34,528 nucleotides of DNA from Pseudomonadales bacterium. Its GTDB lineage: Bacteria > Pseudomonadota > Gammaproteobacteria > Pseudomonadales > DC-out160. Location of the stretch: NCBI GenBank assembly GCA_016765265.1, contig JAESQG010000566.1:1-34528 (forward strand), read 5' to 3'. Below, one piece after another: positions 1 through 26,075 of this stretch. Below the pieces are notes generated by a model, which searched no databases, was not told the origin of the DNA, and was given only the letters and a program-made list of their open reading frames with translations. Each line of letters begins with the position of its first letter. The first letter of the stretch is position 1. A program made the position numbers and the translations under genes.

Positions 1-1
1 A

Positions 2-382
2 GGCTCAAATGCCGTGGTCGTCAAAGGTGTCGAAGCTGGTGCCACTGTGGTGGGGGTGCCGGGCCGGGTTGTTTCACCCAAAAAAACAACGAGCAGTGAA
101 GAACAGCAACGGGCGGAAACGGCTAAAAAGCTTGGGTTTGATGCCTACGGAGCCACGAGTGATGCCCCGGACCCCGTGGCTAATGCCATTAACAGTCTAC
201 TGGATCACGTGCATGTTATGGATGGCAAAATGGCCTCCATGTGCGAGGCAATCAAACGGCTTGATGTAGAATTTAACGATGAAAAACTCCCGAACCTGGA
301 GAATTGCAGCATCAACCCCAGTGATGCCCCGCCGCAGGCTTCTTCCTCGTCAACCGGTGAAAATCAGGAAACTGAACGCTGA
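2..382 (+). CDS. cysE: serine O-acetyltransferase, C-terminal part (5' end lies off the window)
   Basis: The frame is open from the window edge. Hexapeptide-repeat-like GSNAVVVKGVEAGATVVGVPGRVV resembles the CysE C-terminus, followed by a long low-complexity tail. It lies directly upstream of iscR, a gene order known in pseudomonad-like gammaproteobacteria. Confidence 0.5.
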   Translation, partial: GSNAVVVKGVEAGATVVGVPGRVVSPKKTTSSEEQQRAETAKKLGFDAYGATSDAPDPVANAINSLLDHVHVMDGKMASMCEAIKRLDVEFNDEKLPNLENCSINPSDAPPQASSSSTGENQETER

Positions 383-487
383 ATTTGGTCGGTGCCAGAG
401 ACGGCTAATCACGAGCAAAGTAACCGTAGGCTGAATGAAATCAAGGTGTGCAGCCCATTTTTAGGCTGGAATGATGGTATTGCAACT

Positions 488-546
488 ATTACTTGACTAA
501 ACTTGTCGGATATAGATAATAGTACTTGACTAAATTTGTCGGATAT
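488..546 (+). promoter_or_regulatory. two tandem IscR type-1 operator-like sites within a 33-bp tandem duplication (490-522 and 523-555)
   Basis: TACTTGACTAAACTTGTCGGATAT (490-513) and TACTTGACTAAATTTGTCGGATAT (523-546) match about 21 of 24 positions of the IscR type-1 consensus as I recall it (ATASYYGACTRWWWYAGTCRRSTAT). The two 33-bp units differ only at position 502 (c) versus 535 (t). They lie upstream of iscR. Confidence 0.6.
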
Positions 547-801
547 AGATAATAGCAGATCAAATTGATCGGGTATTAGGGTGCGCAATTATTTTTCACC
601 CTACATTTTTCACCCTAAATAGATCAACAGGGAGAGCCTGGGAGAGACTGCTTGGGATTACATAGAATCCGGGTGGGTTTGACCAGAAAACGTAGCTTCG
701 GTAGGCTTCCGTTTAATTCCCGCGCTTTTAGTAAGCTTTAAGCGTTGATTGGTGGGCGGAGAGAGATCCGCCCCAACGTATGTAACCACTGAGGTGAAAT
801 T

Positions 802-1293
802 ATGAGATTGACGACCAAAGGCCGCTATGCCGTCACTGCAATGCTTGATCTGGCATTAAATGCTCAGGAACGGCCGATTACTCTGGCAGACATCTCCCAG
901 CGCCAGGGAATTTCTCTTTCCTATCTTGAGCAATTGTTTTCGCGCTTGCGCAAGCAAGGACTGGTGTCGAGCGCACGTGGCCCAGGGGGCGGATACCGCC
1001 TCAGTCGCGCTGCGAATGACATTAACATCGCTCAGATAATCGAAGCGGTTGACGAAAAAGTGTCAGTAACTCGTTGCGGCGGCAAGGGTGATTGTCAAAA
1101 TGGCGAATCTTGTTTAACCCATAAATTATGGTGCTCGTTAAGCGACCAGATTCACGGGTTTTTAGACAGCATTTCACTCGGAAGTCTGGTTGAAGAGGAA
1201 TATGTAAAAGTTGTCGCCGAGCGTCAGCTGAATGATACTCAGGAAGCGAATAGCCAGCCTGAAACAACGTTGCAGACCGCGACGAGCATGTAA
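802..1293 (+). CDS. iscR: Fe-S cluster assembly transcriptional regulator IscR (Rrf2 family)
   Basis: [19 protein letters not shown] is an Rrf2 winged-helix N-terminus. The cluster-ligand motif C-x5-C-x5-C-x2-H is present ([18 protein letters not shown]). A GAGGTG Shine-Dalgarno sequence precedes the ATG. Confidence 0.9.
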
Positions 1294-1355
1294 TTTTCGG
1301 GTAGCGAAGCGCACATAGTGCGTGCCGCTAATCAGACCCGAACGGGTGCAAATAC

Positions 1356-2579
1356 GTGACTTCATTCGACCACATATATCTCGACAACAATGCATCCACG
1401 CCGATAGATGAGCGTGTTTTAGAGACCATGCTGCCGTACCTGCGAGGGCAATATGGAAATCCTTCCAGTGTGTATCAGCTTGGGCGCATGGCACGGGCTG
1501 CCATCGACGTTGCGCGAGAACAAGTTGCCACATTGGTTAACGCACACCCCTCGCAAGTGGTATTTACCAGCGGGGGTACTGAGGCTAATAATTTAGCATT
1601 GAAAGGTGCCGCGGGAAGATTGCTCCCAGGCAGTCTGGCAATCAGTGCCGTTGAACATGGATCAGTACGTGCTCCGGCGCAGGCTTTACGAAAACAAGGC
1701 TGGGTACTGAGTGAAGTTGGCGTTGATACCCAAGGGCGCCTCGATATGATGCAACTCAATGAGGTGATTTCCAGTCATCACATGAGTACCGCCAGCACTG
1801 GCGTACCCGGTAAGAGCATGTCTGGCAAGAAAAAGCCTGGCAAGATCGTAGCGGTAATGTTGGCTAACAATGAAACCGGCGTCATTCATAATGTCGTTGA
1901 GGTCGCGGAACTGGCCCGAGAAAATGGCGCACTGTTATTTGTCGACGCCGTACAGGCTGCCGGTAAAATACCCGTCGATTTCAAGGTAACAGGCGCACAG
2001 ATGATGAGCTTGTCGGCGCATAAAATGTATGGTCCCAAGGGGGCTGGTGCTCTGATCGTCGACAAATCGACTGATATGGAGCCTTTGCTTCATGGCGGTG
2101 GGCACGAAAAAGGTCGGCGCACGGGAACTGAAAATGTCGCCGCCTTTGTCGGGTTTGGCAAGGCCGCAGAACTGGCAATGGCTGAAATGGAATTGCGACA
2201 CCAGCGTGTTCAGCCATTACGTGAACATCTCGAACAACGTGTGATGGCAGAAATGCCGGAAGTGAAGATATTTGCTCAAGAGGCAGAACGATTGCCCAAC
2301 ACCAGTTTTTTCGCGGTACCGGGTGTGGATGGAGAGACGCTGTTAATGAGTCTCGATCAGGCGGGTTTGGCCGTATCCAGTGGCTCCGCTTGTAGTACCG
2401 GTGAAACAGACCCCAGCCATGTGTTAATGGCGATGGGCGTGGATAAAGCACTGGCGCGAGGAGCCATTCGCGTAAGTTTGGGAAAAGATTCACAACGCAA
2501 TGAAATAGATCGTTTTGTGGATTGTCTTAAACAGCAGGTACAGGCATTACAACGCTTTGCTGCCGTTGCGTACGCGTAG
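1356..2579 (+). CDS. cysteine desulfurase, NifS/IscS-like class V aminotransferase (GTG start)
   Basis: PLP-lysine motif SAHKMYGPKGAGAL and catalytic cysteine loop SSGSACSTG are present, with an N-terminal YLDNNASTP motif. It carries a Ser/Lys/Gly-rich insert (SSHHMSTASTGVPGKSMSGKKKPGK). Confidence 0.85.
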   Translation: MTSFDHIYLDNNASTPIDERVLETMLPYLRGQYGNPSSVYQLGRMARAAIDVAREQVATLVNAHPSQVVFTSGGTEANNLALKGAAGRLLPGSLAISAVEHGSVRAPAQALRKQGWVLSEVGVDTQGRLDMMQLNEVISSHHMSTASTGVPGKSMSGKKKPGKIVAVMLANNETGVIHNVVEVAELARENGALLFVDAVQAAGKIPVDFKVTGAQMMSLSAHKMYGPKGAGALIVDKSTDMEPLLHGGGHEKGRRTGTENVAAFVGFGKAAELAMAEMELRHQRVQPLREHLEQRVMAEMPEVKIFAQEAERLPNTSFFAVPGVDGETLLMSLDQAGLAVSSGSACSTGETDPSHVLMAMGVDKALARGAIRVSLGKDSQRNEIDRFVDCLKQQVQALQRFAAVAYA

Positions 2580-2812
2580 GTTAGTGTTTGCGGCTGTAGG
2601 GCATCAATCGCGTATATGCCGTTTATAAGCTGTATTAATAGAGAGTTGTTAATAAGTTTTATAGCGCTTTGACAGTAATTATGAAACATAAGTTTTGATT
2701 CGAGCTAATTCTGGGCATTAGGTTTCATAACGAAAGCTTCAGCTAATAAGGGTTATGCAAGATTGTTTTTGAAATTGTGTATTGAAATTGTTTTAGAGAA
2801 AGGTAACAACAA

Positions 2813-3094
2813 ATGACAATCAGTAATGAACGCCCCATCTACATGGATTATGCGGCAACAACGCCAATGGATCCCCGCGTCGCGGAAAAAATGATGCAGT
2901 TTTTGACCCCGGACGGCGAGTACGGCAATCCGGCTTCGCGTTCGCATTCCTATGGCTGGAATGCAGAATCGGCTGTTGAAGAGGCACGCAAGCACGTTGC
3001 CAGTCTGGTGAATGCCAATCCCAAGGAAATTATCTGGACCTCGGGTGCGACGGAGTCTGACAATCTTGCTATCAAGGGTGTGGCGCATTTCTAT
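2813..3094 (+). pseudogene. iscS: iscS N-terminal fragment (first 94 codons only), truncated at the compositional breakpoint
   Basis: [24 protein letters not shown]...[19 protein letters not shown] is near-collinear with IscS residues 1 to about 94. After codon 94 the ORF reads [15 protein letters not shown] with no IscS similarity, in AT-rich DNA. The PLP lysine and catalytic cysteine regions are absent from the window. Confidence 0.8.
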
Positions 3095-3201
3095 AACTCT
3101 TTCGTGAGATATTTTTCTAGTGATAAAAATATTCACAAACCTTTGACTATCACTTTGACTAAATCTATTCGTATTCATAGCTACTCCAATCTATTCTTAA
3201 A

Positions 3202-4029
3202 TTATAAAACACAAGAAACGGCAGGTCTATACATTTCAAATTCTTCTTCTGTCCAAGAAGAATCTTTCCCTTTTAAGAACGCCATAACTTTATTTTGAGC
3301 CGCTTCACCATAAAAATTTCTAGCAAATCTTGGAATTTTTGAATCTCCATTATTTTTATTATCTCTAAACTTTTTAACTTGATTTGATAAATATTTTAGC
3401 GAAGTCGATAACAAAATCCCCGGACTACCATTAACTCTTTCGCAAGGTTTGGCTTCACCAATTTGCTGAAAACAAAATAGTTTAGTATAAAATTTTAAAT
3501 GTCTTGGGTGCACTTCTACAAGAAAGTCCGTTTGCTTCATATTGTGAAAAGCATGGATGAAAATAAAATGAAACATTCTCAACAAAATAGTCTTTGATGT
3601 TCTATATTCCGGTGCTATTGCTAGACGAGTAATCTCCGCTAATCGACGATTCATTTTTCTTAATGAAAATAATTCCTCATTAAAAATTTGATCACATGGT
3701 AGCCCGTCACCAGCTTCAAAATTTAAAGTTACAGTGCCAACGGCTTTTCCTTCTTTGGTTTCTACCAATAATGTAAAAACGTTTTTACCACCATCAAAAC
3801 TATTTACACAAACTTTATCTTCATTATGAATATATCCTGATTCGTTGTACACTTTGTAACCCAATTCATAGGCCTTTCGTCTAGAATCAATGTCCGTAGC
3901 GACAATAAAATTAAAATCTTCTTCATCATTTAAGTCAACTTTTAGCACAGGTTTTTTAGCAGTAGCGCTAATTATTTTTATGACTTGTGAAACAGCTGAA
4001 ATTCTTCTTTTTTTATTTGAAGCAATCAT
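3202..4029 (-). CDS. FeeM-type long-chain N-acyl amino acid synthase (NAS paralog A)
   Basis: GNAT-like motifs shared with the two other paralogs: [57 protein letters not shown]. The start is set at ATG 4029 because AGGAG lies 7 nt upstream. The ORF-track ATG at 4071 overlaps the predicted -12 promoter element. Confidence 0.7.
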
Positions 4030-4065
4030 TTTATTTCTCCTGTGATAATAAACATATTGAGTATA

Positions 4066-4082
4066 AAGCATTTAGTATGCCG
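4066..4082 (-). promoter_or_regulatory. sigma-54 (-24/-12) promoter candidate for NAS A
   Basis: The minus strand reads CGGCAT-ACTAA-ATGCTT. GG is at 4081/4080 and GC at 4069/4068, exactly 10 nt apart. The element lies about 40 nt upstream of ATG 4029, and a sigma-54 activator gene is divergent 150 bp away. Confidence 0.6.
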
Positions 4083-4223
4083 AATATTCACTATTTCATA
4101 AATACAGTATTTTCAATGGGTTAGAATATTACAGAGAAAAGATGGATAATTATTTTGACTTCAGTCGTTTAATTATTACTAATAATATCTCTATATTTTC
4201 TCTATTGATTATAGGCAATTATA

Positions 4224-6602
4224 ATGGCTTCAAAAAATAAAACGTATCATCCATTGATTGCCGCTTTTATTGAAAAGCTACATTGGTGGGACACCTTAGA
4301 AAAAATAAAAAAAAAGCTAGACACAGATGTATATAATATTTTCAAGCTACATGAAGATCTTCACAAGACACCTCGTGAAAATATAGAGCAATTAGCAGAG
4401 AAATTCAAAAAGGCCATTCCACTCTTTAACAATTTTCTTAAAAAAAAATGTGACCCAGACCTTCAGTTTTTATCGCTACTCTATTGGTTTGAGGACTGCA
4501 TGAAAGTTGGGACATTTATAGATGCAGATTTCGTAAAAAATCATTTAGAAAAAATTCTTAATAAAAATACTCCTGATGAATTGCAAAGTATTTTCTATGG
4601 ACATACTGGAGTTTATTATCGGAAAAAAGGAAATGCCTCTAAAGGAAATGAATATTTATTAAAATGTGTTCAATGCCTGAAACCAGATAATCCAAGATTC
4701 ATTCCCGTTTTAATTAATTATGGAAATATCACTAGCTATTTTGGTACGTATCCAAAAATTAAAAATGACATTGAGCTATATTTAAAAGATACAGACAAAG
4801 ATTTTAAACATTGGGGTGATCTATTACTATTTTTTTATTCTATTGAAATGGGTCATTTAAAACAAGCATGGGATGCCTTAAAAAATGTTCCAGAAAATGC
4901 ACCTGGAGTGCTATTTTATTATCATAAATTCAAAATTCATTCGTTTGCCATCGCTTTAAATAAAATGATTCAAAATTGGAATATCACTGATTTTTCAAAA
5001 GTTGAAAAACAGGAAATTGATGAATTCATTCGCGACAGGTATAATCCAGGGAGTTTCGATCGAGGGTATAATATAAAGATTGAAATATTAGATAATATCT
5101 ATTCAGGTAATAGCGATGAAGTAATTAAATTGACTCAAGAGGATAAATTAAGAAACAGAGATCATTGGGAATCAAGTTGGTTTTATTGCTCTCAAATTAG
5201 AATTGAACTCATGGCGGGCAATATTGAATCAGCCGAAATATTATTAAAAAATCTCATTTCAATTGGATATGAATTTATATGGAACGACTGGTTTATGACA
5301 CGAATTGAGCTAGCCAAAAAAAATATCGATGCTGCAAAATATTATTTTCAGAAATTATTAAAATCAGTACAAAAACATAATGCTGAAGATCGCTTTAACT
5401 TTGAGGTCAAAATAGCCCATGAAATAAAGGCAACCGATTTAATTCTATTATCAGACAATAAGAATTTAAAAATTAAAAAGCCCTCAAAGACCAAAATAAA
5501 TTTAGATATTGACAGAATGCCGGCAATCATTGGAATAAGCAAACAGGTAATTAAATTAAAAGAATCAATATCAAAAGTTGCCCCGCATGACATCAATGTT
5601 TTAATTCTAGGAGAGACAGGTACAGGTAAAGAGGTAGTCGCAAAATCACTGCACAATTTAGGCCCAAGAAAAAAAGAACCATACATTGCAATCAACTGTG
5701 CCGCCATTTCAGAAACATTACTTGAATCTGAATTATTTGGCCATCAGAAAGGTGCTTTTACGGGGGCAACAGAATACCATAAAGGTGTTTTTGAACAAGC
5801 GGGTAAGGGTACCGTTTTTTTGGATGAAATTGGTGAGATCAGCTCCAACATTCAAAGTGCTTTATTAAGAGTTTTAGAAACTAAAGATATTAAGCCGATC
5901 GGATCATCTAAATCTTTAAAAATTAATTGTCGTATCATCGCTGCAACTAATGCCAATCTAGAGTTGAAAGTAAAAAATAACGAATTTCGAATGGATCTTC
6001 TGCATCGCCTTAACAGAGTAGTCGTACATACAAATCCACTAAGAAAAAAAATCGAAGACATCCCCCACTTAAGCCAATATTTCTTAAATCAAAATCCGAA
6101 CTTCACAAAAGAAGCGAATCTAACCTTTGAGGCTATTGAAGCTTTAAAAAAATACCCGTGGCCAGGTAATGCTAGAGAACTTAAAAATGAAATGGAAAAC
6201 CTTCGGATTTTCAATTATGAGACATCCCTTTATGATCTTCAAGATTTAGATCCAAAATTTCATGGCCGAGCGGAATCCACTGAAAAAGCAGAAGCCCTAT
6301 CCCTTTCAAGTCTGCAAAGCTCCGAAAATAAACACGCGAAACCAACGGAGATAATTGATAGAGAACAAATCTTGGCAACTGAAGTTTTGTCAAACAATAA
6401 AATTTTCTTTCGAAGAATCGAAAAAATCAAAAAACTTTTTGATATTCATAACATATTAACACGAGCAGAATTAATAAAAATCATGGGAGTTTCTCACTTG
6501 ACAGTAACAAAAGATTTGAAGCTATTAATTGAACAAGACTATATTAAAAAAGTCATGCCGAGTAAATCTCCACGTTCACATTATTTTGAAAAACTACCTT
6601 AG
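4224..6602 (+). CDS. sigma-54-dependent transcriptional activator (bEBP 1) with a helical-repeat N-terminal domain and a winged-helix C-terminus
   Basis: Walker A GETGTGKE (about 5610-5633), GAFTGA (5751-5768), Walker B VFLDEIGE, and ESELFGH are present. There is no receiver, GAF or PAS signature in the roughly 430-aa N-terminus. The C-terminus LTRAELIKIMGVSHLTVTKDLKLLIEQDYIKKVMPSKSPRSHYF looks like a wHTH rather than a Fis-type HTH. Confidence 0.85.
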   Translation: MASKNKTYHPLIAAFIEKLHWWDTLEKIKKKLDTDVYNIFKLHEDLHKTPRENIEQLAEKFKKAIPLFNNFLKKKCDPDLQFLSLLYWFEDCMKVGTFIDADFVKNHLEKILNKNTPDELQSIFYGHTGVYYRKKGNASKGNEYLLKCVQCLKPDNPRFIPVLINYGNITSYFGTYPKIKNDIELYLKDTDKDFKHWGDLLLFFYSIEMGHLKQAWDALKNVPENAPGVLFYYHKFKIHSFAIALNKMIQNWNITDFSKVEKQEIDEFIRDRYNPGSFDRGYNIKIEILDNIYSGNSDEVIKLTQEDKLRNRDHWESSWFYCSQIRIELMAGNIESAEILLKNLISIGYEFIWNDWFMTRIELAKKNIDAAKYYFQKLLKSVQKHNAEDRFNFEVKIAHEIKATDLILLSDNKNLKIKKPSKTKINLDIDRMPAIIGISKQVIKLKESISKVAPHDINVLILGETGTGKEVVAKSLHNLGPRKKEPYIAINCAAISETLLESELFGHQKGAFTGATEYHKGVFEQAGKGTVFLDEIGEISSNIQSALLRVLETKDIKPIGSSKSLKINCRIIAATNANLELKVKNNEFRMDLLHRLNRVVVHTNPLRKKIEDIPHLSQYFLNQNPNFTKEANLTFEAIEALKKYPWPGNARELKNEMENLRIFNYETSLYDLQDLDPKFHGRAESTEKAEALSLSSLQSSENKHAKPTEIIDREQILATEVLSNNKIFFRRIEKIKKLFDIHNILTRAELIKIMGVSHLTVTKDLKLLIEQDYIKKVMPSKSPRSHYFEKLP

Positions 6603-6756
6603 TCCTCAACATTAACTTTTTTCAAATTAAGTATCTATATGTAAAACCGCTACAACTCATTCTGTTGTAATATTGTTTCCATACAACATATATATAGAAA
6701 CACCAAATTAGAAGACTAAACTTCTTTGAAAAGAATTCAATTTGAGAATATCTACC

Positions 6757-9700
6757 ATGCATATCTTTAATACTAAATTTTTTATAGTAATTTCGGCACA
6801 AATATTTTTACTTTTCATATCTATTCATTCTGAAGATTGGCCAATGTGGAAAGGTACCTCCGGACGCGGTGGAGTAAACAATGAGACATTACCCAGTAAA
6901 ATGAATTTGCTATGGACTCGTCAATTTCCAAAATCAAAACCAGCATGGGCTAATAACAAAAGCCAAGCAAAACTTCAGTTTGATGTATCCTTTCAACCAG
7001 TTGTTATGGGTAAAAGTATATTCGTACCTTCAAATGTTAATGATAGTGTAAGTGCATATGATACCGATAGCGGTAAGCAAAAATGGATTTTTTATTCTGA
7101 TGGCCCTGTAAGATTTGCACCCGTGGCCAATGATAATAAAGTTTATTTTGTATCGGATGACGGTTACTTGTATTGCCTCAATGCAGAATCAGGAAAACTA
7201 ATCTGGAAATATAATGGTGGACCTGAAAATAGGAAAATCCTTGGTCGTGATCGATTAATTTCTATCTGGCCAGCTCGTGGAGCACCAGTGCTAAAAAATA
7301 AAAAAATATTTTTTGCCGCCAGCATTTTCCCCTTTATGGGAACTTTCATTCATTGTGTGGATGCAAATTCAGGCAAAATGATTTGGAGAGATACAGGCAA
7401 CGGACCTAAATATTTTACGCAACCTCATGGTGCTGGATCTTTTGCTGGTCTTTCTCCTCAGGGATACCTTGCTGCAGGTGATAAATATTTAATCGTACCC
7501 GGAGGAAAATCTTTACCGGCTGTATATGACATTGAAACGGGGAAATTCTTATACTATTATTTGAACAGTAAGAAAGGCGGTTACAGTGTTCAAGCAGGTA
7601 AAAACTTTTATTTTACCGGTGGTTATGCCAATCAAATTAACAAAACAGAAAAAGGCTTTTCTATCATCAATGGTATATACGCCACTTACGGAAACACCTT
7701 AATTTCAGACAAGGCCATGTATCTTTTACATAATAGTATAATTACGGCTTACCGATTCAAGCCAGAATTTGAAATGAAGGTATATAAAAAAAATAGAAAA
7801 AAAGCTTATCTTACCATGCCAGTTTTGGGCGAATTCACAATTCCTTCGCCAAAAAGTGCTGTCAGGATCAAAGCCGGGAATCAAATTATTCTATATGAGC
7901 GTTACAAAAAACATCTTTACGCTGTTAAGCTACCAAATGAAGAAACACTATTAAAAGCAAAAGCCGGGGAATCTGTAAAACAAAACTTACCCACTATTTG
8001 GACTATCCCGACAGGAAAAAGCCCATGGTCTGTTATTGCTGCAGATAAAAAAGTTTTTGTGGTTACACACGAAGGACTATTATCTTGTTATGGTGCAAGC
8101 ACACAAGAGGTCCAAAAACATAACATTGCCTTAACTCCATTACCAGACACTTCAAACTCGGTTGCTAAATCATTGTTAGAAGTTTTAAAAGAATTGAAAA
8201 TTAAAGACGGCTATTGTGTTTTAGCAGGCTTAGGAAATGATAAATTAGCTGAAACGCTAATTAACAAAACAAACCTTTCTATAATTGCTGTCGATTCAGA
8301 TAAATCAAAAATAAATTCATTAAGACATTCAACTGATCAAGCTGGCTTTTATGGCAATAGAATGTCAGTACATGAAGGCGATCCCCTTTCATATCCACTC
8401 CCACCCTATTTCGCAAACATAATAATTATAACAAATTTAAGCAAACGTTTTTTATATAGTAAATCTAACTTAAAAACTTTATTTAATTCACTACGTCCTT
8501 ATGGTGGCACAGCTTTCTTTAAAGTATCTCCATCAGATATTGATAAAGTTAAAGCTCTATCTACAAAAGCAGGTCTTATTAATGCTGAAATAAAAGCTTC
8601 AAATGGATGGATGCTCTTAATTCGTAAGGGCGCACTTCCTGATTCTGCAGAATGGTCCCACCAGTATGCCGATTCATCAAATAGTATATTTGGCAAAGAT
8701 AAACTTGTCAAACTACCCCTAGGATTATTATGGTTTGGCGGTCCTCCAAATACAAATGTTCTACCAAGACATGGTCATGGTCCATCCCCTCAAGTGGCAG
8801 GCGGCAGAGTTATTATAGAAGGTCAGAATATGTTAAGGGCTGTTGATGCTTACACAGGCAGGTTACTTTGGGAACTTAAGTTAAAAAATCTAGGATATTA
8901 TTATCGACATACGGGCCATCATCCTGGTGCTAATGAAATTGGAGGAAATTACGTATCATTACAAGACACTATATATGTTGCTTATGGGAAAGATCTTTTA
9001 TTTTTAGAAGCAGCTACAGGCAATTTGTTAAAAAAAATAAATTACAAAGAAAATGATAGCGACAAAGAATCTAAAACATGGGGTCATATTTCTGTTCACA
9101 AAAATTATTTAATTACAACAACCTCACCAATTACATTTAAAATACAAAAAGATAAAACAGCTATAATAAATAAAAATGCAAAGTATTCTTCTGGAAGTGA
9201 ACAAATAATAGTACTTAATCGCAAGACGGGAAAAATACTCTGGAAACGAAAAGCCAAATTCAATTTTAGGCACAATGCCATATGCAGTGGCGATGGTGTC
9301 TTATTTTGCATTGACTCTTTCTCAAAAAGTAAATTTAATTATTTAAGAAACCAAGAAGAGAAAATCGGAAAACTATTAGCACTTGATATCAAAACTGGGA
9401 AAGAAATTTGGTCCAGTAATGAAAATATAACAGGAACCTTTTTAAATTATTCTGATAAACACAAAGTCCTTCTCCAGGCCGGTAGCTCCAACCGAGACAG
9501 GGCCAGAGATGAGACAAAAACAGGCATGATAGTTTATCAAGCTAAAGATGGAAAAGTAGTCTGGCAAAATTTAAAAATAAAATACGGAGGCCCATTAATT
9601 ATCCGACACAAAGAAATCATTACCAATGGTGGTGGTGGCACAGGAATTGATTTACTTTCAGGCAAAGCCACAAGTTTTAAGTGGAAACGAAACTACGGAT

Positions 9701-10446
9701 GCAACACCGCTATTAGTTCAGAACACCTACTGACCTTTCGATCAGGGGCAGCAGGTTTTTATGATTTAACTAATAGAGGCGGAACAGGAAACTTCGGTGG
9801 TTTTAAATCCAGTTGTACATCAAATCTTATTCCAGCTGATGGAATACTAAATGCTCCCGATTATACCAGATCTTGTTCATGTGCTTATCAGCTCACTGTC
9901 TCCTGTGCTTTGGTCCATATGCCTGATGTAGAGTACTGGACATTTAAAGCTGATGCTACTCCTGGAAAATGGGGATTCAATATTGCTGCATTAGGAGATA
10001 GGAAAGTCCCCAATGGTTCTTTGTGGCGAAAATTTGACATTTTAAAAAACAGAAAATATATACGATCAACTTCTGGCAAATTAACACCGTTCAGAGTTCA
10101 TTCAGGCTACGTTAAAGGAGAAAAGTTTAAATGGGTTGCTTCCTCTGGAGTAAAAGGTTTAACTGATTTAAACATCAATGTTAAGGGAGCTACCAAAGGT
10201 ACCGTTAGGCTAATTTTCATGGAACCAGACAAACTCAAAATAGGAGATAGAATCTTTGATATATCATTGCAGGGAAAAGAGTTAATTAAAGGGCTTGATA
10301 TAATCAAAGAATCTGGAGGACAAAATCATGTCCTGATCAAAGAATTTAAAGATATCGAATTAAACAATTCATTAAAAATTATATTTAAAGCATCCACAAA
10401 GAACCCACCTATTCTCAGCGGAATAGAAATTATCAAAACAAATTAG
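6757..10446 (+). CDS. secreted PQQ-like beta-propeller repeat protein with a central Rossmann/methyltransferase-like insert and a C-terminal malectin-like domain
   Basis: The N-terminus is hydrophobic (FFIVISAQIFLLFISIHS). BamB/PQQ-like repeats recur (SGKQKWIF, DGYLYCLNAESGKLIWKY, DANSGKMIW, DAYTGRLLWE, NRKTGKILWK, DIKTGKEIW). The C-terminus IFDISLQGKELIKGLDIIKESGG resembles malectin domains. The ORF track starts at TTG 6742; ATG 6757 is preferred. Confidence 0.6.
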   Translation: MHIFNTKFFIVISAQIFLLFISIHSEDWPMWKGTSGRGGVNNETLPSKMNLLWTRQFPKSKPAWANNKSQAKLQFDVSFQPVVMGKSIFVPSNVNDSVSAYDTDSGKQKWIFYSDGPVRFAPVANDNKVYFVSDDGYLYCLNAESGKLIWKYNGGPENRKILGRDRLISIWPARGAPVLKNKKIFFAASIFPFMGTFIHCVDANSGKMIWRDTGNGPKYFTQPHGAGSFAGLSPQGYLAAGDKYLIVPGGKSLPAVYDIETGKFLYYYLNSKKGGYSVQAGKNFYFTGGYANQINKTEKGFSIINGIYATYGNTLISDKAMYLLHNSIITAYRFKPEFEMKVYKKNRKKAYLTMPVLGEFTIPSPKSAVRIKAGNQIILYERYKKHLYAVKLPNEETLLKAKAGESVKQNLPTIWTIPTGKSPWSVIAADKKVFVVTHEGLLSCYGASTQEVQKHNIALTPLPDTSNSVAKSLLEVLKELKIKDGYCVLAGLGNDKLAETLINKTNLSIIAVDSDKSKINSLRHSTDQAGFYGNRMSVHEGDPLSYPLPPYFANIIIITNLSKRFLYSKSNLKTLFNSLRPYGGTAFFKVSPSDIDKVKALSTKAGLINAEIKASNGWMLLIRKGALPDSAEWSHQYADSSNSIFGKDKLVKLPLGLLWFGGPPNTNVLPRHGHGPSPQVAGGRVIIEGQNMLRAVDAYTGRLLWELKLKNLGYYYRHTGHHPGANEIGGNYVSLQDTIYVAYGKDLLFLEAATGNLLKKINYKENDSDKESKTWGHISVHKNYLITTTSPITFKIQKDKTAIINKNAKYSSGSEQIIVLNRKTGKILWKRKAKFNFRHNAICSGDGVLFCIDSFSKSKFNYLRNQEEKIGKLLALDIKTGKEIWSSNENITGTFLNYSDKHKVLLQAGSSNRDRARDETKTGMIVYQAKDGKVVWQNLKIKYGGPLIIRHKEIITNGGGGTGIDLLSGKATSFKWKRNYGCNTAISSEHLLTFRSGAAGFYDLTNRGGTGNFGGFKSSCTSNLIPADGILNAPDYTRSCSCAYQLTVSCALVHMPDVEYWTFKADATPGKWGFNIAALGDRKVPNGSLWRKFDILKNRKYIRSTSGKLTPFRVHSGYVKGEKFKWVASSGVKGLTDLNINVKGATKGTVRLIFMEPDKLKIGDRIFDISLQGKELIKGLDIIKESGGQNHVLIKEFKDIELNNSLKIIFKASTKNPPILSGIEIIKTN

Positions 10447-10478
10447 GCAACAGTCGTAGGTTGGGCTGCAGACTATTT

Positions 10479-11315
10479 TCAATCGCCAGAATCGATTAAA
10501 CCTACCGTGTCAATTCCCAGTAGTTGATTATCTAGCCACTGCATTACACTTGGCCACAATTTCTGTGTCCAATCGTTTTGAGGATTATAAAAAAATCCAT
10601 GGCCAGAATTGGGGCTAGGTATAAAAGTGACTGGTCTCTCATTTTTCATTAATGCGTTAGCAAGAATTAAGGATTGATCATAAGGAACCGTTTCATCAAA
10701 AGGATCGTGCACAATATACATAGGTGAAGAATTTTTATCAACATGCAATGCTGGAGAAGCTTGGACATATACTTCTTCAATTTCTTCAATGGTACCACCT
10801 AAGAAATGAGCTCTTTTATTTTTTGTTTTTTCATAATTATTTTCTAGATAAACAAAATCATGAACTCCATGAACATCAACCACACAATTAACTTTAGCAG
10901 AGACCCCATCATGCTCTTGGCCAAATACACCTAGGCAAGCAACTAGATGCCCTCCGGCAGAACTGCCGATGGCACCAATCTTATCAACACTGATTTTAAA
11001 GCGATCTGCATTTTTACGAAACCAAACAACAGCTGACTGACAATCGATTAAAGCAGCAGGAAACACAGCCACTTGGGATAGTCGATAGCTAATTGTACAA
11101 GCAACATAACCGTGTAAAGCAAGACGATGAGCATGCCATAAAAATTGATTTCGATCGCCAGCATTCCAGCCCCCGCCATGCACTAAGATGATACCGGCGC
11201 CATTTTGTTTTTTTTCACTAGGTAGGAATACATCTGCAGTAAGTTCTGTTTCGCCATAAATGGCAAAGACCTCGGAAAGATCGGGGTCAGGAAACTCTTT
11301 TTCGTAATATGTCAT
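10479..11315 (-). CDS. alpha/beta hydrolase (esterase/lipase-like)
   Basis: Oxyanion motif VHGGGW and nucleophile elbow GSSAGG are present, with a late GHGF histidine region. Confidence 0.75.
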   Translation of the reverse strand: MTYYEKEFPDPDLSEVFAIYGETELTADVFLPSEKKQNGAGIILVHGGGWNAGDRNQFLWHAHRLALHGYVACTISYRLSQVAVFPAALIDCQSAVVWFRKNADRFKISVDKIGAIGSSAGGHLVACLGVFGQEHDGVSAKVNCVVDVHGVHDFVYLENNYEKTKNKRAHFLGGTIEEIEEVYVQASPALHVDKNSSPMYIVHDPFDETVPYDQSLILANALMKNERPVTFIPSPNSGHGFFYNPQNDWTQKLWPSVMQWLDNQLLGIDTVGLIDSGD

Positions 11316-11351
11316 TTATAACTTTCTTCAGTAATACAATGAAAAATAAAC

Positions 11352-11367
11352 ACAAAGCATGCTTTGT
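11352..11367. promoter_or_regulatory. perfect 16-bp palindrome in a divergent promoter region
   Basis: ACAAAGCATGCTTTGT is its own reverse complement. It lies between the divergent esterase gene (start 11315) and the metallophosphoesterase gene (start 11445). Confidence 0.3.
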
Positions 11368-11444
11368 CTCTACAAAAATATATTGATAGATGATTCTCTC
11401 AAATATAATATGATTTCCAATAAATAACTTAAAGAAAAACGGCA

Positions 11445-12311
11445 ATGACAAAGTTCATCTATATTTCAGATACTCATTTTGGTGCCAATCCTATGAATTA
11501 TCATCAACAGGAAGGTTATCCAGAAAAGCTTCCAGAAATTATTTTAAAATTAAATGAATTCATCAAAAACAGAGACGATATAGATTTTGTTCTTCATGGT
11601 GGGGATATGATTGATAGTGTTTCTGAACAAACCATTTCAATGGCAAGCAAGTATTTTAAATTTGATGTTCCTATTTACCTTTGTCTTGGCAATCATGATT
11701 TAACCGAATTGAATTCGTTGGATCTTTGGCTCAAAATTGCTCCTCAATATTTTAACGATACAAATAAACCTATCTTCACTATTACAACAAAAGATTGCCT
11801 CATCCATGTCATCCCTAATCACTGGGAGGAAATCCCTTATTACTGGAGTGAAACTCAAGAGGCCTATTTATCGGAAGAACAAATTAATAATCTTTCACAC
11901 GAACTAAACAAATCAACCGATTTTCCTCATATCGTTTTAACACATAGTCCCATTTTTGGCTTACCCACTGAACAAACAGGACAAGAAGAAATATACCACT
12001 CCCCAAATGAAAATTTCAGGAAGACCTTAACTTCTCTAGCACAGAATCACAAGACTATCAAATGTATCCTTGGTGGTCACAACCATTTGAATATGAATTT
12101 AAAACATGAGAATGTTCAGTATGTTACAGCTAGTTCTTTTTCAGAAGCACCCTTTGACTTCAAACTTTTTGAAGTTTCAAAAAACTCAATCACAATGGAA
12201 ACAATAAACCTAGCTGACTCACTTGATTTTAATATTGAATACAACTCAGAAAAATCGTATGTTCAAGGTCGACCAATTGACCGAAAGTTCGCAATAAACT
12301 TTGATTTATGA
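11445..12311 (+). CDS. metallophosphoesterase (calcineurin-like)
   Basis: Ordered motifs are present: SDTHFG, GGDMID, GNHD, LTHSP, GGHNH. Confidence 0.8.
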   Translation: MTKFIYISDTHFGANPMNYHQQEGYPEKLPEIILKLNEFIKNRDDIDFVLHGGDMIDSVSEQTISMASKYFKFDVPIYLCLGNHDLTELNSLDLWLKIAPQYFNDTNKPIFTITTKDCLIHVIPNHWEEIPYYWSETQEAYLSEEQINNLSHELNKSTDFPHIVLTHSPIFGLPTEQTGQEEIYHSPNENFRKTLTSLAQNHKTIKCILGGHNHLNMNLKHENVQYVTASSFSEAPFDFKLFEVSKNSITMETINLADSLDFNIEYNSEKSYVQGRPIDRKFAINFDL

Positions 12312-13391
12312 ATTACCATAAATATGTTTCTTTTGGTCTGTATGATTTAACTCTACTCTGTTTTTCGAATCCATATTAATCGTACCAATAGCACTCATAA
12401 CAGTATTAGATGTTCCTCCATCTTTAGCACCAACATATACTAAATGATACTTCTCATCAATTAAAATTGAACTAGGAGATGCGAGTTCTTCAGAATCATT
12501 ATCATCCATTGAACCTCTAGCTAAAACATTTTTACTTTGGTGTGTAAGCGTAACACCATCATCGGCTAAATATATTTCATAAAGTTCAACAAAACGAGCC
12601 ATGCCTCCACTAGCTCTATTTCCAACTCCGCAGATTGCAGCATAACCGCCATCATCTAAGACTCGGATTGAATTCGGATCAAGCTCATGCCAAATAATCA
12701 TCCGATCTTCTTCAACTGATTGACCTTCAATAGGTTCTAATACATGAAGCCTTTTCCAGTTAATCGCATCATCAGAACCCCAAAGAGCTGAATAATAATC
12801 ATTCCCACCCCCATGAAGCGAATAACCAATATACTTATTTTCAATTCCAGAAAAAGGATTCTTACTCCAACGGAAATATCCGGTATGACCATCACCTGGA
12901 TCTTCATCCGGATTATATTTTAATATAACAGAATCCTCGTCGCCATTAATTCTAGAAAAACTAATACCATCATCTGAAGTAGCTAATAAAGTTGCCTGAC
13001 TTGGACCAATACCATTTTTGTGATAAGATAAAAATACTTTTCCATCAACTACATTGGCATGTGGTGTTTCCGTATGGCCATCTCCTTGTACATTATCAAA
13101 ATAAATCGGATTCGATAATGGCTTTATTGCAATGTGATCAAACGCACCTTCCCCTAAAACATCATCATAAGACTTCCAACTTTTCGCTTCAGATGGCACC
13201 CCATTACAAACATATAGCCAAATACCACCGTCTTTACTATTATGATCCGTTGAAAAATACATTGCATAATCAAACGGAAAGGTCTCAATGTTTTTCATGT
13301 CAATTAGTGTTGTATAATAAGGTCCTGGTGCCGGCATATCATCAGGGCGAAATATAATACTACCCACTTTTGAAAAGGTGTTATTACTCAT
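12306..13391 (-). CDS. beta-propeller glycosidase-like protein with Asp-box-like motifs; no signal peptide
   Basis: Two BNR/Asp-box-like motifs are present (TSDDGISFSR and GSDDAINWKR). The composition is beta-strand rich. Its stop overlaps the convergent metallophosphoesterase stop (TTATGA). It is probably co-transcribed with the upstream sulfatase. Family assignment is uncertain. Confidence 0.35.
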   Translation of the reverse strand: MSNNTFSKVGSIIFRPDDMPAPGPYYTTLIDMKNIETFPFDYAMYFSTDHNSKDGGIWLYVCNGVPSEAKSWKSYDDVLGEGAFDHIAIKPLSNPIYFDNVQGDGHTETPHANVVDGKVFLSYHKNGIGPSQATLLATSDDGISFSRINGDEDSVILKYNPDEDPGDGHTGYFRWSKNPFSGIENKYIGYSLHGGGNDYYSALWGSDDAINWKRLHVLEPIEGQSVEEDRMIIWHELDPNSIRVLDDGGYAAICGVGNRASGGMARFVELYEIYLADDGVTLTHQSKNVLARGSMDDNDSEELASPSSILIDEKYHLVYVGAKDGGTSNTVMSAIGTINMDSKNRVELNHTDQKKHIYGNS

Positions 13392-13421
13392 TTTATTCTT
13401 CTTTCTAAAATATTTGTCAAT

Positions 13422-15041
13422 CTATTTAACAATAAACTCAGCACTTGTCTCTTCGCTCTCCGCAAAACCAATTCGAATAGATTTAGTTCTAATTCGATAA
13501 CTACCTTTTTCTAACATTAAAGGTTCATGATACAATTGCCATTTAATATTTTCTCCATTTTCAAACGTGTAGGCAATTGAGGCTCCCTGAGTCATGCAAA
13601 CTAATTGAACTCGAGTTGGTGAAGAAAACTCTCCTCCCATTGGTGTCAATTCAGACTCTAACTTGTTTTTATCTAGCGGGAAAAATTTCACGACACTAGT
13701 TTGTGGTTGCTTACCATCAGGATACCAATTTCTTACCATTTCTTCTTCAGTTATTTTTCCTAAATCTCCAATATCAAACATCCATTGATCAAGAGCTTTA
13801 CGCAATCTTTTTATTTCAATTTTGTATTTAGAATCTTTTGCTAAATTATTGACTTCATGGGGATCTTCTACAATATCATATAATTCTTCTGAAGGTTTTT
13901 TTTCAAACATTAATTTCTGCACATCATTCAGCTCATCACTAAAATACAAACGATGCATCTCCTGAACTATGGGATGACGATTACAATAAGGTGTAAAAGG
14001 CAAATAAGGAGAATGAAGATCATAATGTCTCATATATTTAAATTTTTTATCTCGAACAGCTCTCACCATATCATAACTTTCATCGTGCCTATCCCGATGA
14101 GCAAAAATATATTCTCGGGCGTCCTCTTTTTCGTTTCCTAAGAACGCTTGGCCTTGCATATACTGAGGGATCTCTAGTCCTGCCAAGGACATCATCGTTG
14201 GTCCAAGATCAACTGAACTAATCAAGTCCTCATTTATTGAATCTGGCTTAACGTTCTCAGGATATCGAATGATCATAGGTATATGAATTCCAGAATCATA
14301 AGGCCAACGTTTACCGCGAGGCATTGGACCATGATCACTCCAATGTACTACGATGGTATTTTCAGCCAAGCCATCTTCGTCCAATTCTTTTAAAAGATTG
14401 CCTAATTGTTGATCCGCCCATTCAATGTTAGCATACATTTGAGTCATAGACTCTCTAACTTTTTTAGTATCAGGAAAATAAGGTGGCAAGACCATATCAT
14501 CAGGATTAAAATTATTTTCACACCATTTATTCTCTGGCCACATGCCACTTTCATGCGTTAACATCGGATTAAATACTGCGAAAAAAGGCTGTTCTGTATT
14601 CGGACGATTTCTCCAATGAGCCTCTTTTCCTAATTCATCCCAAGCCGTAACGGGTGATTCAAATTGATAATCAGTCTTATGATTATTAGTACAATAATAT
14701 CCGCTTGCTCTAAAATATTCTGTAAAACATTTTACATAATGAGGCAACTTAGCATCATAGGGCGTGGGAAGCTCTCTACAGTTATCATTATTATGTGTCG
14801 TTCGCATATGATGAGTACCAATAGAAGTCGGATACATCCCTGTGATTACCGCTGACCTTGACGGAGAACAAACACCCGATGGCGCGAATGCATTGGGCCA
14901 AATACAGCCATCTTTTGCAAGCTGATCAACTATTGGAGTACGGGCAACCTGATCACCATAACATCCATAAAATGGATTCGAATCTTCAAAAGATACCCAT
15001 AAGATATTCGGCCTGTTCTTAGCATTACTATTCTTACTCAT
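13422..15041 (-). CDS. sulfatase (formylglycine type) with a C-terminal beta-sandwich domain; no signal peptide
   Basis: PNILWVSFEDSNP followed by the CSPSRSAVITG C-x-P-x-R motif, then WSDHGP. The start is set at ATG 15041 (MSKNS); the ORF-track GTG at 15074 adds 11 residues. Confidence 0.85.
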   Translation of the reverse strand: MSKNSNAKNRPNILWVSFEDSNPFYGCYGDQVARTPIVDQLAKDGCIWPNAFAPSGVCSPSRSAVITGMYPTSIGTHHMRTTHNNDNCRELPTPYDAKLPHYVKCFTEYFRASGYYCTNNHKTDYQFESPVTAWDELGKEAHWRNRPNTEQPFFAVFNPMLTHESGMWPENKWCENNFNPDDMVLPPYFPDTKKVRESMTQMYANIEWADQQLGNLLKELDEDGLAENTIVVHWSDHGPMPRGKRWPYDSGIHIPMIIRYPENVKPDSINEDLISSVDLGPTMMSLAGLEIPQYMQGQAFLGNEKEDAREYIFAHRDRHDESYDMVRAVRDKKFKYMRHYDLHSPYLPFTPYCNRHPIVQEMHRLYFSDELNDVQKLMFEKKPSEELYDIVEDPHEVNNLAKDSKYKIEIKRLRKALDQWMFDIGDLGKITEEEMVRNWYPDGKQPQTSVVKFFPLDKNKLESELTPMGGEFSSPTRVQLVCMTQGASIAYTFENGENIKWQLYHEPLMLEKGSYRIRTKSIRIGFAESEETSAEFIVK

Positions 15042-15088
15042 TTTATTATTTCCAATTAAAATAATTGATATCACATGCTAGTAGTCAT

Positions 15089-15105
15089 ATGGTAGCACAA
15101 GCTTC
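15089..15105 (+). promoter_or_regulatory. 17-nt motif ATGGTAGCACAAGCTTC, copy 1 (divergent sulfatase intergenic region)
   Basis: It is identical to 30305-30321. A near-identical inverted copy lies at 15164-15180. Confidence 0.35.
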
Positions 15106-15163
15106 CAGCATGTAACTAAAATGCTGATTATAGAATATAATATGAAAAAATTCACAACAAGCT

Positions 15164-15180
15164 AGAAGCTTGTACTACAT
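15164..15180 (-). promoter_or_regulatory. inverted near-copy of the sulfatase-associated motif
   Basis: The minus strand reads ATGTAGTACAAGCTTCT. GTAGTACAAGCTTC matches GTAGCACAAGCTTC at 13 of 14 positions. It is oriented toward the minus-strand sulfatase. Confidence 0.3.
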
Positions 15181-15287
15181 AAATATTTCAATTTAAAATT
15201 TTATTATCAAGATTGAGACATTCATTGCAATCTATGAAATATCACTATAACCATTTATACTTTTGATCACAATAATGAGGAACAATC

Positions 15288-16655: not shown

Positions 16656-16720
16656 GACAATTCACTTAATTAAATATATTCGCTTCATATGTCAAGCCTA
16701 TGTGCATATGTTAATTCCAC

Positions 16721-17935: not shown

Positions 17936-17951
17936 TGCAAATCACAAGCCA
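17936..17951 (-). promoter_or_regulatory. sigma-54 (-24/-12) promoter candidate for NAS B
   Basis: The minus strand reads TGGCTT-GTGAT-TTGCA, close to the consensus TGGCAC-N5-TTGCW. GG is at 17950/17949 and GC at 17938/17937, 10 nt apart. The element is about 40 nt upstream of ATG 17896. Confidence 0.7.
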
Positions 17952-18030: not shown

Positions 18031-18066
18031 TATATAGATCAATTAAAACTTAAATTGATCTATATA
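18031..18066. promoter_or_regulatory. perfect 14-bp inverted repeat; candidate enhancer (UAS) for bEBP 2
   Basis: TATATAGATCAATT (18031-18044), an 8-nt spacer, then AATTGATCTATATA (18053-18066). Its centre is about 100 nt upstream of the -24 element of the NAS B promoter and about 75 nt upstream of the bEBP 2 ATG. Confidence 0.45.
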
Positions 18067-25562: not shown

Positions 25563-26075
25563 ATGATGACCAAAAGAGCTCAAATATTAAACAAGTTCAT
25601 GAAGGATCAGGCAAAATTCAAAGCATTTGCTTATACCATGACATTAGACTGGTCAATTGCAGAAGATGCAACTCAGGAAACAGCCGTTTATATTTGTGAT
25701 CACTGGGAAAAATTCAAACTGGGCACCAATTTTAATGCCTGGGCACGCACACTTATCAAAAACAGATGTCGAGAGTTATTACGTAAAGAATACATGGAGC
25801 AGAAAAAGATTCATAAGATCGCCGAAGTAATAGAAGACACTGTCTGGGATCAAGTTGAAAATATTGATGGAGAAAAAATAAATGCTTTACATAGTTGTGT
25901 AGAAAAACTTCCGGCAAAAACAAAAAAAGTGTTCATGATGTTTTATCAAGAAAAAATTAAATGCCAGATAATTTCTGACTTTTTAAAAATAACTGAAGAA
26001 GCGACATATAAGATATTAAGTCGCACAAGGCGAAGTCTAAAAACCTGTATTACAAATCAAATGAAAGAGCTTTAG
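25563..26075 (+). CDS. ECF-family RNA polymerase sigma factor
   Basis: Region 2 (DATQETAVYICDHWEKF...FNAWARTLIKNRCRELLRKE) and region 4 (LPAKTKKVFMMFYQEKIKCQIISDFLKITEEATYKILSRTRRSL) are both present. Confidence 0.85.
   Translation: MMTKRAQILNKFMKDQAKFKAFAYTMTLDWSIAEDATQETAVYICDHWEKFKLGTNFNAWARTLIKNRCRELLRKEYMEQKKIHKIAEVIEDTVWDQVENIDGEKINALHSCVEKLPAKTKKVFMMFYQEKIKCQIISDFLKITEEATYKILSRTRRSLKTCITNQMKEL

Follow-up and report, generated by a model that had tools for sequence, protein, structure and literature searches.

A FeeM-type N-acyl amino acid synthase gene and a divergently encoded activator with a TPR-like N-terminal domain: a conserved pairing around a predicted sigma-54 promoter

We describe a gene pair in metagenomic DNA in which a gene for a synthase of N-acyl amino acids (NAS), of the FeeM type, lies behind a predicted sigma-54 promoter and back to back with the gene of a sigma-54 activator, or bacterial enhancer-binding protein (bEBP). 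The pair was found in a stretch of 34,528 nucleotides (contig JAESQG010000566.1 of assembly GCA_016765265.1, hereafter the window), where the synthase, NAS1 (275 aa), occupies positions 3202 to 4029 of the minus strand and the activator, bEBP1 (792 aa), positions 4224 to 6602 of the plus strand. It is probable (about 0.7) that this cassette works as a sigma-54 switch, complete in itself, for the expression of a small operon of lipoamino-acid biosynthesis. The identities of the genes, the quality and conservation of the promoter and the conserved genomic coupling were direct results of the analysis.

FeeM-type synthases recur in metagenomes and in Planctomycetota, and the control of their expression and the role of their products are largely unclear so far. 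No paper in the searchable literature library brought synthases of N-acyl amino acids together with sigma-54 or an enhancer-binding protein; thus, within that library, both the coupling and the activator family appear undescribed. A preliminary description of this DNA had stated that no characterised example of a NAS-bEBP pairing was known outside the PEP-CTERM context, and this held to the same extent.

NAS1 and its promoter

The product of NAS1 matched the FeeM model PF21926 of Pfam with 143.5 bits (E = 6.4e-42; cut-off 27), covering positions 1 to 156 of the 158 in the profile, and more weakly the GNAT model PF13444 (E = 4.5e-7). FeeM itself (2G0B, E = 3e-5) was the sole sequence match in the PDB, with an identity of only about 25-30% across 110 residues. 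The Glu in the NAS1 segment RLAEITRL pairs with the Glu of KLAEVVQF in FeeM, which we take to be the catalytic base, and was invariant in NAS1, in the other two synthases of the window (NAS2 and NAS3) and in P0002, the nearest database relative. A Shine-Dalgarno sequence, AGGAG, was read at 4037-4041 on the minus strand, 7 nt 5' of the ATG at 4029. The gene had been put forward as a NAS-type GNAT gene with that start and that Shine-Dalgarno sequence, and the significant matches of the 275-aa protein to both models agreed with the proposal. On these matches NAS1 is a FeeM-type NAS; it shares with FeeM the strong Pfam match and the aligned Glu, and is expected to adopt a GNAT/LuxI-like acyltransferase fold. 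By analogy with FeeM, NAS1 would N-acylate an amino acid at the expense of an acyl group on acyl carrier protein (acyl-ACP); it differs from FeeM by a paired ygaP-like membrane module and by its predicted sigma-54 control.

Upstream of NAS1, the sequence CGGCAT-ACTAA-ATGCTT (4066-4082, minus strand) scored 12.9 bits with a sigma-54 weight matrix. Its GG (4081-4080) and GC (4069-4068) show the exact spacing of a -24/-12 promoter, the distance is 39 nt to the ATG of NAS1 and 142 nt to the start codon of the activator, and the predicted transcription start is near 4056. Among the 62,838 strand-positions scanned in the native part of the window, this site ranked second, the first being TGGCTTGTGATTTGCA (17951-17936, minus strand), 41 nt 5' of NAS2. 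The preliminary description had singled out the same element, and the matrix scan covering the 4040-4100 region recovered it. The GG-N10-GC spacing that it had used as its criterion is, taken alone, at chance level, with 98 occurrences in the window for 97.1 expected, and the extended form GGC-N8-TGC was equally uninformative (8 found, 7.0 expected); both counts were dropped as evidence and replaced by the ranking with the weight matrix, by which the site is good. In the paralogous cassette of locus L017, probably another contig of the same metagenome-assembled genome (MAG) as the window (shared sequencing run and PCJ accession series), TGGCAC-TAGAA-ATGCTT stands at the equivalent place, and the -12 element ATGCTT of the NAS1 promoter occurs in two of the L017 promoters. 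No match to a sigma-70-type consensus was found in 4030-4223. Judged from its sequence, the NAS1 -24/-12 element is a good sigma-54 promoter, and dependence on rpoN is predicted.

The intergenic region of cassette 1 was aligned with that of the L017 cassette, whose activator is called P0004. Three conserved islands emerged: the promoter; the 16-mer AGTCAAAATAATT(A/G)TC at about -97 (4145-4160, minus strand), a candidate upstream activating sequence (UAS); and AACC(C/T)A(T/C)TGAAAA at about -60 (4110-4122, minus strand), a candidate site for integration host factor (IHF) or for the activator. The 16-mer is flanked by an inverted repeat (4133-4146 / 4190-4203; 14 nt, 86% complementary). With two sequences compared, the upstream islands are suggestive as candidate sites.

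bEBP1 and its family

The divergent AAA+ activator with a GAFTGA motif, which had been reported on the strand opposite to NAS1, was readily recovered. bEBP1 matched PF00158 (Sigma54_activat) at residues 435-601 (E = 9.7e-65) and the lid model AAA_lid (PF25601) at residues 607-690, and the corresponding stretch (5526-6293) encodes Walker A GETGTGKE, GAFTGA and Walker B FLDEIGE. At its C-terminus bEBP1 carries a winged-helix DNA-binding domain (6399-6602) with the signature P-x-x-SPRSHYF, delimited by the family alignment. HTH_8 (PF02954), present in generic bEBP hits, was missing in bEBP1 and P0004, and bEBP2, the paralogue of bEBP1 in the window, gave a weak HTH_DeoR match.

The first ~430 residues of bEBP1 had no match in Pfam or NCBIfam. 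An AlphaFold2 model of residues 1-430 (4224-5513), computed from a three-sequence alignment, consisted of 22 helices arranged as an all-alpha solenoid resembling tetratricopeptide repeats (TPR), with a pLDDT of 70.5 and a pTM of 0.62; this domain is presumed to serve as sensory or regulatory input. Foldseek comparison of the model with the PDB returned generic TPR proteins only (best E = 0.01), with APC/C subunits and the TPR domain of OGT on top. Rap pheromone receptors appeared at ranks 12, 22, 29 and 38 (E 0.03-0.07, TM 0.36-0.46), with matches that did not surpass those to APC/C or OGT, and the N-domain was not assigned to a specific fold family, the matches being generic.

Exhaustive HMMER searching with residues 1-430 retrieved 78 representatives, nearly all of 700-830 aa, annotated at source as hypothetical proteins or generic sigma-54 regulators and, where the organism was named, from Planctomycetota. 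The parts common to the family alignment were the N-domain, of which the final ~120 residues are the best kept, the AAA+ core and the C-terminal P-x-x-SPR[ST]HYF, the winged-helix signature (~65-aa domain) being kept in 56 members. Mean pairwise identity was 0.20 for the first 300 residues, 0.33 for the next 125, 0.55 for the AAA+ domain and 0.45 for the winged helix; the low identity of the N-domain indicates that the input domain is the fast-evolving part of these proteins. The ~780-aa activators that combine a TPR-like domain, an AAA+ domain and a winged helix apparently form an undescribed family.

A word-indexed search retrieved, for NAS1, the protein itself and one relative, and for bEBP1 one full-length relative, P0004 (47% identity, 100% coverage). 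The same tool returned nothing for the N-domain of bEBP1 (4224-5513), not even the identical protein; this zero was rejected as a tool artefact in view of the 78 representatives found by HMMER. Word-indexed negatives are unreliable for this low-complexity domain encoded by AT-rich DNA.

Locus L018 contains (8879-10213) a 444-aa protein with the AAA+ domain and the SPRSHYF winged helix of the family, without the TPR-like N-domain and without a NAS gene nearby, which may be a naturally constitutive or an orphan member.

Conservation of the pairing

Metagenome contigs were scanned with the C-terminal motif of the activators only (12-sequence alignment), which yielded 15 loci with GC contents of 34-73%. 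Five of them were too short to judge. Among the 10 that were informative, 9 had a FeeM homologue next to the activator gene, the one in L029 being weak at first and then confirmed by Pfam (E = 2e-17), and cassettes were often in tandem, with up to four activators per 20 kb. Two cassettes were counted in the window, two to three in L017 and four in L021. Together with the window and L017, these loci show that the adjacency of NAS and bEBP, whose lack of conservation the preliminary description had named as grounds for abandoning the idea, is kept. The promoter arrangement was conserved as well: in 14 of 16 distinct full-length cassettes the best sigma-54 site of the opposite strand scored 12 bits or more and lay at a distance of 70-180 nt from the start codon of the activator. 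Of 200-nt strand-specific stretches drawn at random from these loci, only 1.9% reached 12 bits.

Some of the target operons consist of NAS alone or of NAS plus a ygaP-like module. Elsewhere, genes for EryCIII/UDPGT-type glycosyltransferases, an epimerase, a 2-oxoacid-dehydrogenase-type acyltransferase, methyltransferases, an NmrA-like reductase, KASIII, NMO or a FAD oxidase are added. With these tailoring enzymes, the module has the look of an activator that is specific to one pathway and serves small lipoamino-acid clusters.

When the search was reversed and the NAS alignment was run against a genome collection with one genome per species, 10 loci were obtained, eight in Planctomycetota MAGs (33-39% identity, 59-68% GC) and two betaproteobacterial. 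Genes for ThiF-like proteins, FAD oxidases and glycosyltransferases were frequent neighbours in the Planctomycetota loci, and in 6 of these 8 an extracytoplasmic function (ECF) sigma factor of ~500 aa with a C-terminal extension was encoded beside or near NAS. The reverse scan ruled out the sigma-54 pairing as a trait of the whole NAS clade. Since the nearest Planctomycetota relatives of the synthase lack this activator, the coupling is a property of the activator family and not of the NAS clade, which uses at least two kinds of dedicated regulator. In L007, L009, L012, L013 and L014, all high-GC Planctomycetota loci, the ~500-aa ECF sigma gene with its long C-terminal extension directly adjoins NAS, in what looks like a second conserved regulator-NAS pairing.

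Locus L021 carries two identical NAS copies (6503-7318 and 16192-17007) within 20 kb, next to partner activators that are only moderately similar (normalised score 0.55); the copies reflect either a recent duplication or conversion, or an assembly artefact. Locus L024 repeats the 17-19.5 kb region of L021 in a sister sample.

Transcription unit and the junction at 3094/3095

The cassette had been described as bounded at 3202, and this boundary did not stand. NAS1 is followed by a gene for a ygaP-like protein (PF11127/DUF2892; YgaP-like_TM, E = 1.6e-5), of which the window holds the first 28 codons (3095-3178, minus strand) of 111 aa before the gene is cut by a junction. The native sequence from 3095 to 14029 was 99.98% identical to L004, a 470-kb ENA scaffold, and the independent assemblies L005 and L006 agreed with it. 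All three contain the complete gene for the 111-aa two-helix membrane protein 24 bp after the NAS1 stop codon (L004 10852-11187), followed on its 3' side by argC-like, recJ and other housekeeping genes (NCBI name 'MAG: Planctomycetota bacterium'), and the NCBI MAG shows this succession of genes too. No terminator-like site was found between NAS1 and the ygaP-like gene, and the transcription unit thus comprises the promoter, NAS1 and then the ygaP-like gene.

The ygaP-like domain is also fused to the N-terminus of NAS2 and adjoins NAS genes in L012, L021 and L028. The fusion of a ygaP-like transmembrane module to NAS2 speaks for a synthase that operates at the membrane, and NAS1 probably acts there too.

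On the other side of the junction, positions 1-3094 have a GC content of about 50% and encode a cysE-like protein, an Rrf2/IscR regulator (802-1293), an IscS-like class-V aminotransferase (1356-2579) and a second IscS-like protein broken at about codon 94; Pfam models Rrf2 and Aminotran_5 supported these assignments. At about 3.1 kb the GC content falls from 0.48-0.51 to 0.28-0.37 (~33% in the remainder), and a continuation into 1-3094 was found in none of the three assemblies. Because both junction genes are broken at 3094/3095, this segment is most likely an assembly chimera and lies outside the module.

Proposed mechanism and alternative explanations

In the proposed switch, the winged helix of bEBP1 would bind to sites in the ~140 bp that separate the start codon of the activator gene from the -24/-12 promoter, within the intergenic region of ~190 bp shared by the two genes. 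The AAA+ domains would assemble into a ring whose GAFTGA loops contact the sigma-54 holoenzyme at 4082-4066, ATP being used for promoter opening, and transcription would run from near 4056 through NAS1 and the ygaP-like membrane gene. NAS1 would then move a fatty acyl group (from acyl-ACP, by analogy with FeeM) onto an amino acid, probably at the membrane. The TPR-like N-domain would hold the AAA+ domain inactive until a cue, either a ligand or a protein partner, is present. The binding of bEBP1 to these sites, the inhibition by its N-domain, the kind of cue and the product are predictions made from sequence and from comparison with related systems. An activator that is constitutive or lacks the N-domain could turn on silent NAS clusters in a sigma-54 host, the SPR[ST]HYF winged helix could serve as a genomic marker for such clusters, and the two-gene, one-promoter cassette could be carried to E. 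coli for a direct autoinducer test of long-chain N-acyl amino acids.

Several points weigh against the switch. The weight matrix was our own approximate rendering of the published consensus TGGCACG-N4-TTGCW and not a trained model; the NAS1 promoter, the weaker of the two in the window, departs from the consensus at two positions (C for T before GG, and ATGC for TTGC); the islands upstream of it come from an alignment of two sequences only; none of the 10 loci of the reverse scan held a bEBP within 10 kb of NAS; and an RpoN-box, sought in six-frame translations of ~0.4 Mb of loci, was not found, which is uninformative given that extent. The two departures from consensus, and the chance frequency of both GG-N10-GC and GGC-N8-TGC, would also fit a fortuitous -24/-12 match, with NAS1 being read by another sigma factor and the activator controlling other genes. 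This is highly improbable, as the top two matrix hits in the native window are the promoters of NAS1 and NAS2, the arrangement recurs in 14 of 16 cassettes against the 1.9% background, the site is kept in the paralogous L017 intergenic region, and 4030-4223 offers no sigma-70 consensus match.

Two further explanations were considered. The product of NAS1, or a tailored derivative of it, might bind the TPR-like N-domain of bEBP1, relieve its inhibition and so switch on its own synthase operon. Such autoinduction is conceivable though rather unlikely. In its favour, a dedicated activator encoded next to the synthase is predicted to act on it directly, and tandem paralogous synthase-activator cassettes resemble sets of signal/receptor pairs. 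The N-domain has diverged far more quickly than the AAA+ and DNA-binding domains, the TPR structures matched include Rap-type receptors of peptide pheromones, and stieleriacines, the N-acyl tyrosines of a planctomycete, shorten the lag phase of their producer and alter biofilm formation by other bacteria (PMC7293339). The similarities of paired synthases and activators were also correlated (Mantel r = 0.59, p = 0.0014), although co-inheritance alone could explain such a correlation, which does not separate it from co-evolution of ligand and receptor. Against autoinduction, every Foldseek match was generic TPR at an E value of at least 0.01, and such a fold binds proteins or peptides more often than lipids; the operons have the appearance of tailoring clusters that include their own cluster-situated regulator; and bEBP1 and P0004, which are each other's closest activator paralogues (normalised score 0.45), are paired with distant NAS proteins (0.20) in differing operons, NAS-ygaP-like in one case and NMO-NAS in the other. 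Moreover, some family members face a FAD oxidase, methyltransferase or nucleotidyltransferase gene instead of NAS, related NAS genes use ECF sigma factors, and no LuxI or LuxR family model matches NAS1 or bEBP1. It is similarly doubtful that the tandem cassettes are parallel, chemically distinct autoinducer channels in which each activator is the receptor for the N-acyl amino acid of its adjacent synthase; if they were, they would represent a previously unrecognised sigma-54-run quorum-sensing architecture in Planctomycetota and probably in other uncultured lineages.

The synthase could instead make an aminolipid that stays in the membrane, of a kind with ornithine or glycine lipids and sometimes glycosylated. 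The activator would then sense a cue from the envelope or from nutrients by way of a protein that partners its TPR-like domain, and no secreted signal would be involved. We find this a little less likely than autoinduction. NAS comes with a ygaP-like transmembrane module, either encoded alongside it or fused, several operons contain glycosyltransferase and sugar-nucleotide genes, and NAS1 also matches PF13444, a model that covers aminolipid N-acyltransferases too. TPR domains, furthermore, typically bind proteins, as is well established (PMC1569441). Yet several divergent paralogous cassettes per genome would be unusual for a housekeeping lipid pathway, no OlsA-type O-acyltransferase partner was seen, and characterised FeeM-type enzymes give released long-chain N-acyl amino acids (PMC7293339). 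The sigma-54 switch for a small lipoamino-acid operon remains the reading that we prefer.

Comparison with known systems

The PEP-CTERM/exosortase systems of proteobacteria show a looser association of NAS, sigma-54 and TPR through PrsR, PrsK and PrsT (PMC1569441), and share with the cassette a NAS-type enzyme, a sigma-54 activator with its promoters and a TPR protein in the setting. Here, however, there is no receiver domain and no nearby histidine kinase, the operon under sigma-54 is that of the synthase, and the TPR-like part is a portion of the activator polypeptide and not a lipoprotein. On the PrsR model TIGR02915, bEBP1 reached 251.3 bits for a cut-off of 502.6, through its AAA+ part only and with no Response_reg match. 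Affiliation with these systems was rejected: NAS1 scored 32.2 bits on TIGR03694, one of the models that the preliminary description had proposed for it, far below the cut-off of 111.95, and no exosortase was recognised in the neighbourhood scanned. Exosortase (EpsH) or PEP-CTERM genes were recognised in none of the long open reading frames in the 31 kb of native window DNA, as judged from Pfam scans or from the L004 annotation, except that three frames at the 3' end (15288-16655, 30428-31960 and 32974-34476) were left unscanned and considered sulfatase-like by eye. Those scanned encode sulfatases, a PQQ propeller, an esterase, a metallophosphatase, a ketoacyl synthase, a flavoprotein, an ECF sigma/FecR pair and a solute-binding protein, so that the absence of an exosortase gene noted earlier holds for them.

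The putative stieleriacine cluster of Stieleria maiorica (BGC0002080), also from Planctomycetota, comprises four NAS genes clustered as paralogues, together with genes for a ThiF-like dehydratase and an oxidoreductase (PMC7293339). It resembles the neighbourhoods of the nearest genome relatives of NAS1, in which NAS is found with ThiF, FAD-oxidase or glycosyltransferase genes. Unlike the window cassette, these relatives lack a bEBP gene within 10 kb of NAS, and most of them carry the ~500-aa ECF sigma gene by it. In the stieleriacine paper only a 'putative transcriptional regulator' is named, without analysis (PMC7293339).

Divergent pairs of a bEBP gene and a sigma-54 operon are commonplace. 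NorR-norVW, RtcR-rtcBA, PrpR-prpBCDE and XylR-Pu likewise have a divergent activator, an expected UAS between the genes and an N-domain that gates the AAA+ part, but their activators combine a GAF, PAS, V4R or receiver N-domain with a Fis-type helix-turn-helix, whereas bEBP1 has a ~400-aa TPR-like solenoid, a winged helix and a NAS target. The topology is also that of LuxI/LuxR, in which an acyl-transfer synthase adjoins its own dedicated activator, and FeeM and the LuxI-type synthases are related in structure (Van Wagoner and Clardy 2006, as cited in PMC7293339). The activator class and the sigma factor are different here, and presumably the chemistry as well. None of Autoind_synth (PF00765), Autoind_bind (PF03472) and GerE was among the Pfam matches of NAS1 and bEBP1 at E ≤ 0.01. 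Of the LuxI/LuxR-style module built from different parts that had been suggested, the conserved pairing was upheld, and autoinduction stays a hypothesis. The RRNPP receptors (Rap, NprR, PlcR, PrgX) use a TPR-type solenoid as the sensory domain of a regulator, a role that is presumed for the solenoid of bEBP1; their ligands are peptides and they have no AAA+ domain, while no small peptide gene was evident here and the fold matches were generic.

Other cassettes and neighbouring genes

The second cassette of the window contains NAS2 (16721-17896, minus strand; 391 aa), in which a ygaP-like transmembrane domain is fused to a FeeM domain (PF21926, E = 2.3e-40); the PF11127 match of the former is weak (E = 0.0035; 17.9 bits, under the 25.3-bit cut-off). 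Its predicted sigma-54 promoter, TGGCTT-GTGAT-TTGCA (17936-17951, minus strand), 41 nt 5' of the ATG, was the best of the matrix scan, with 16.8 bits. An inverted repeat, TATATAGATCAATTAAA / TTAAATTGATCTATATA (18031-18066; arms of 17 nt, 94% complementary), is a candidate UAS. The divergent activator bEBP2 (18125-20422, plus strand; 765 aa) is a paralogue of bEBP1 with equal domain layout (38% identity over 486 aa, E = 1e-88). NAS3 (27872-30301, plus strand), by Pfam a FeeM domain fused to a FAD-linked oxidase, lies behind genes for an ECF sigma factor (25563-26075) and a FecR-like protein (26081-27631), both assigned by Pfam, and not behind a bEBP gene.

In L017 the gene order is FAD oxidase (-), a 747-aa activator (+), a fragment of an activator N-terminus, FeeM-type NAS (-), NMO (-), P0004 (+) and a NAS-FAD-oxidase fusion (+). 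Its three best matrix sites precede NMO-NAS (TGGCACTAGAAATGCT), the FAD oxidase (TGGCTTGAAAATTGCC) and the fusion (CGGCATATGAAATGCT). The last of these sites lies, in the 8878-9157 region of L017, within a 41-nt insertion just 5' of the ATG of the fusion gene, a paralogue of NAS3; because the window copy lacks this insertion, the NAS3 paralogues appear to have swapped regulatory input. The activator fragment, a 123-aa open reading frame (3898-4269, plus strand), duplicates the first ~90 residues of P0004 and overlaps the 3' end of the NAS gene, a remnant that suggests recombination between cassettes.

Between cassette 2 and the NAS3 region of the window there are genes for a FabF-type ketoacyl synthase (22223-23461) and an amine-oxidase-like flavoprotein (23803-25197), which may supply or modify the acyl chain. 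Four sulfatase-like genes surround the cassettes (13422-16655, 30428-31960 and 32974-34476), and further neighbours encode a 1234-aa protein with PQQ-propeller and malectin domains (6742-10446), an esterase and a metallophosphatase; the sulfatase and PQQ-propeller surroundings are typical of polysaccharide-degrading Planctomycetota.

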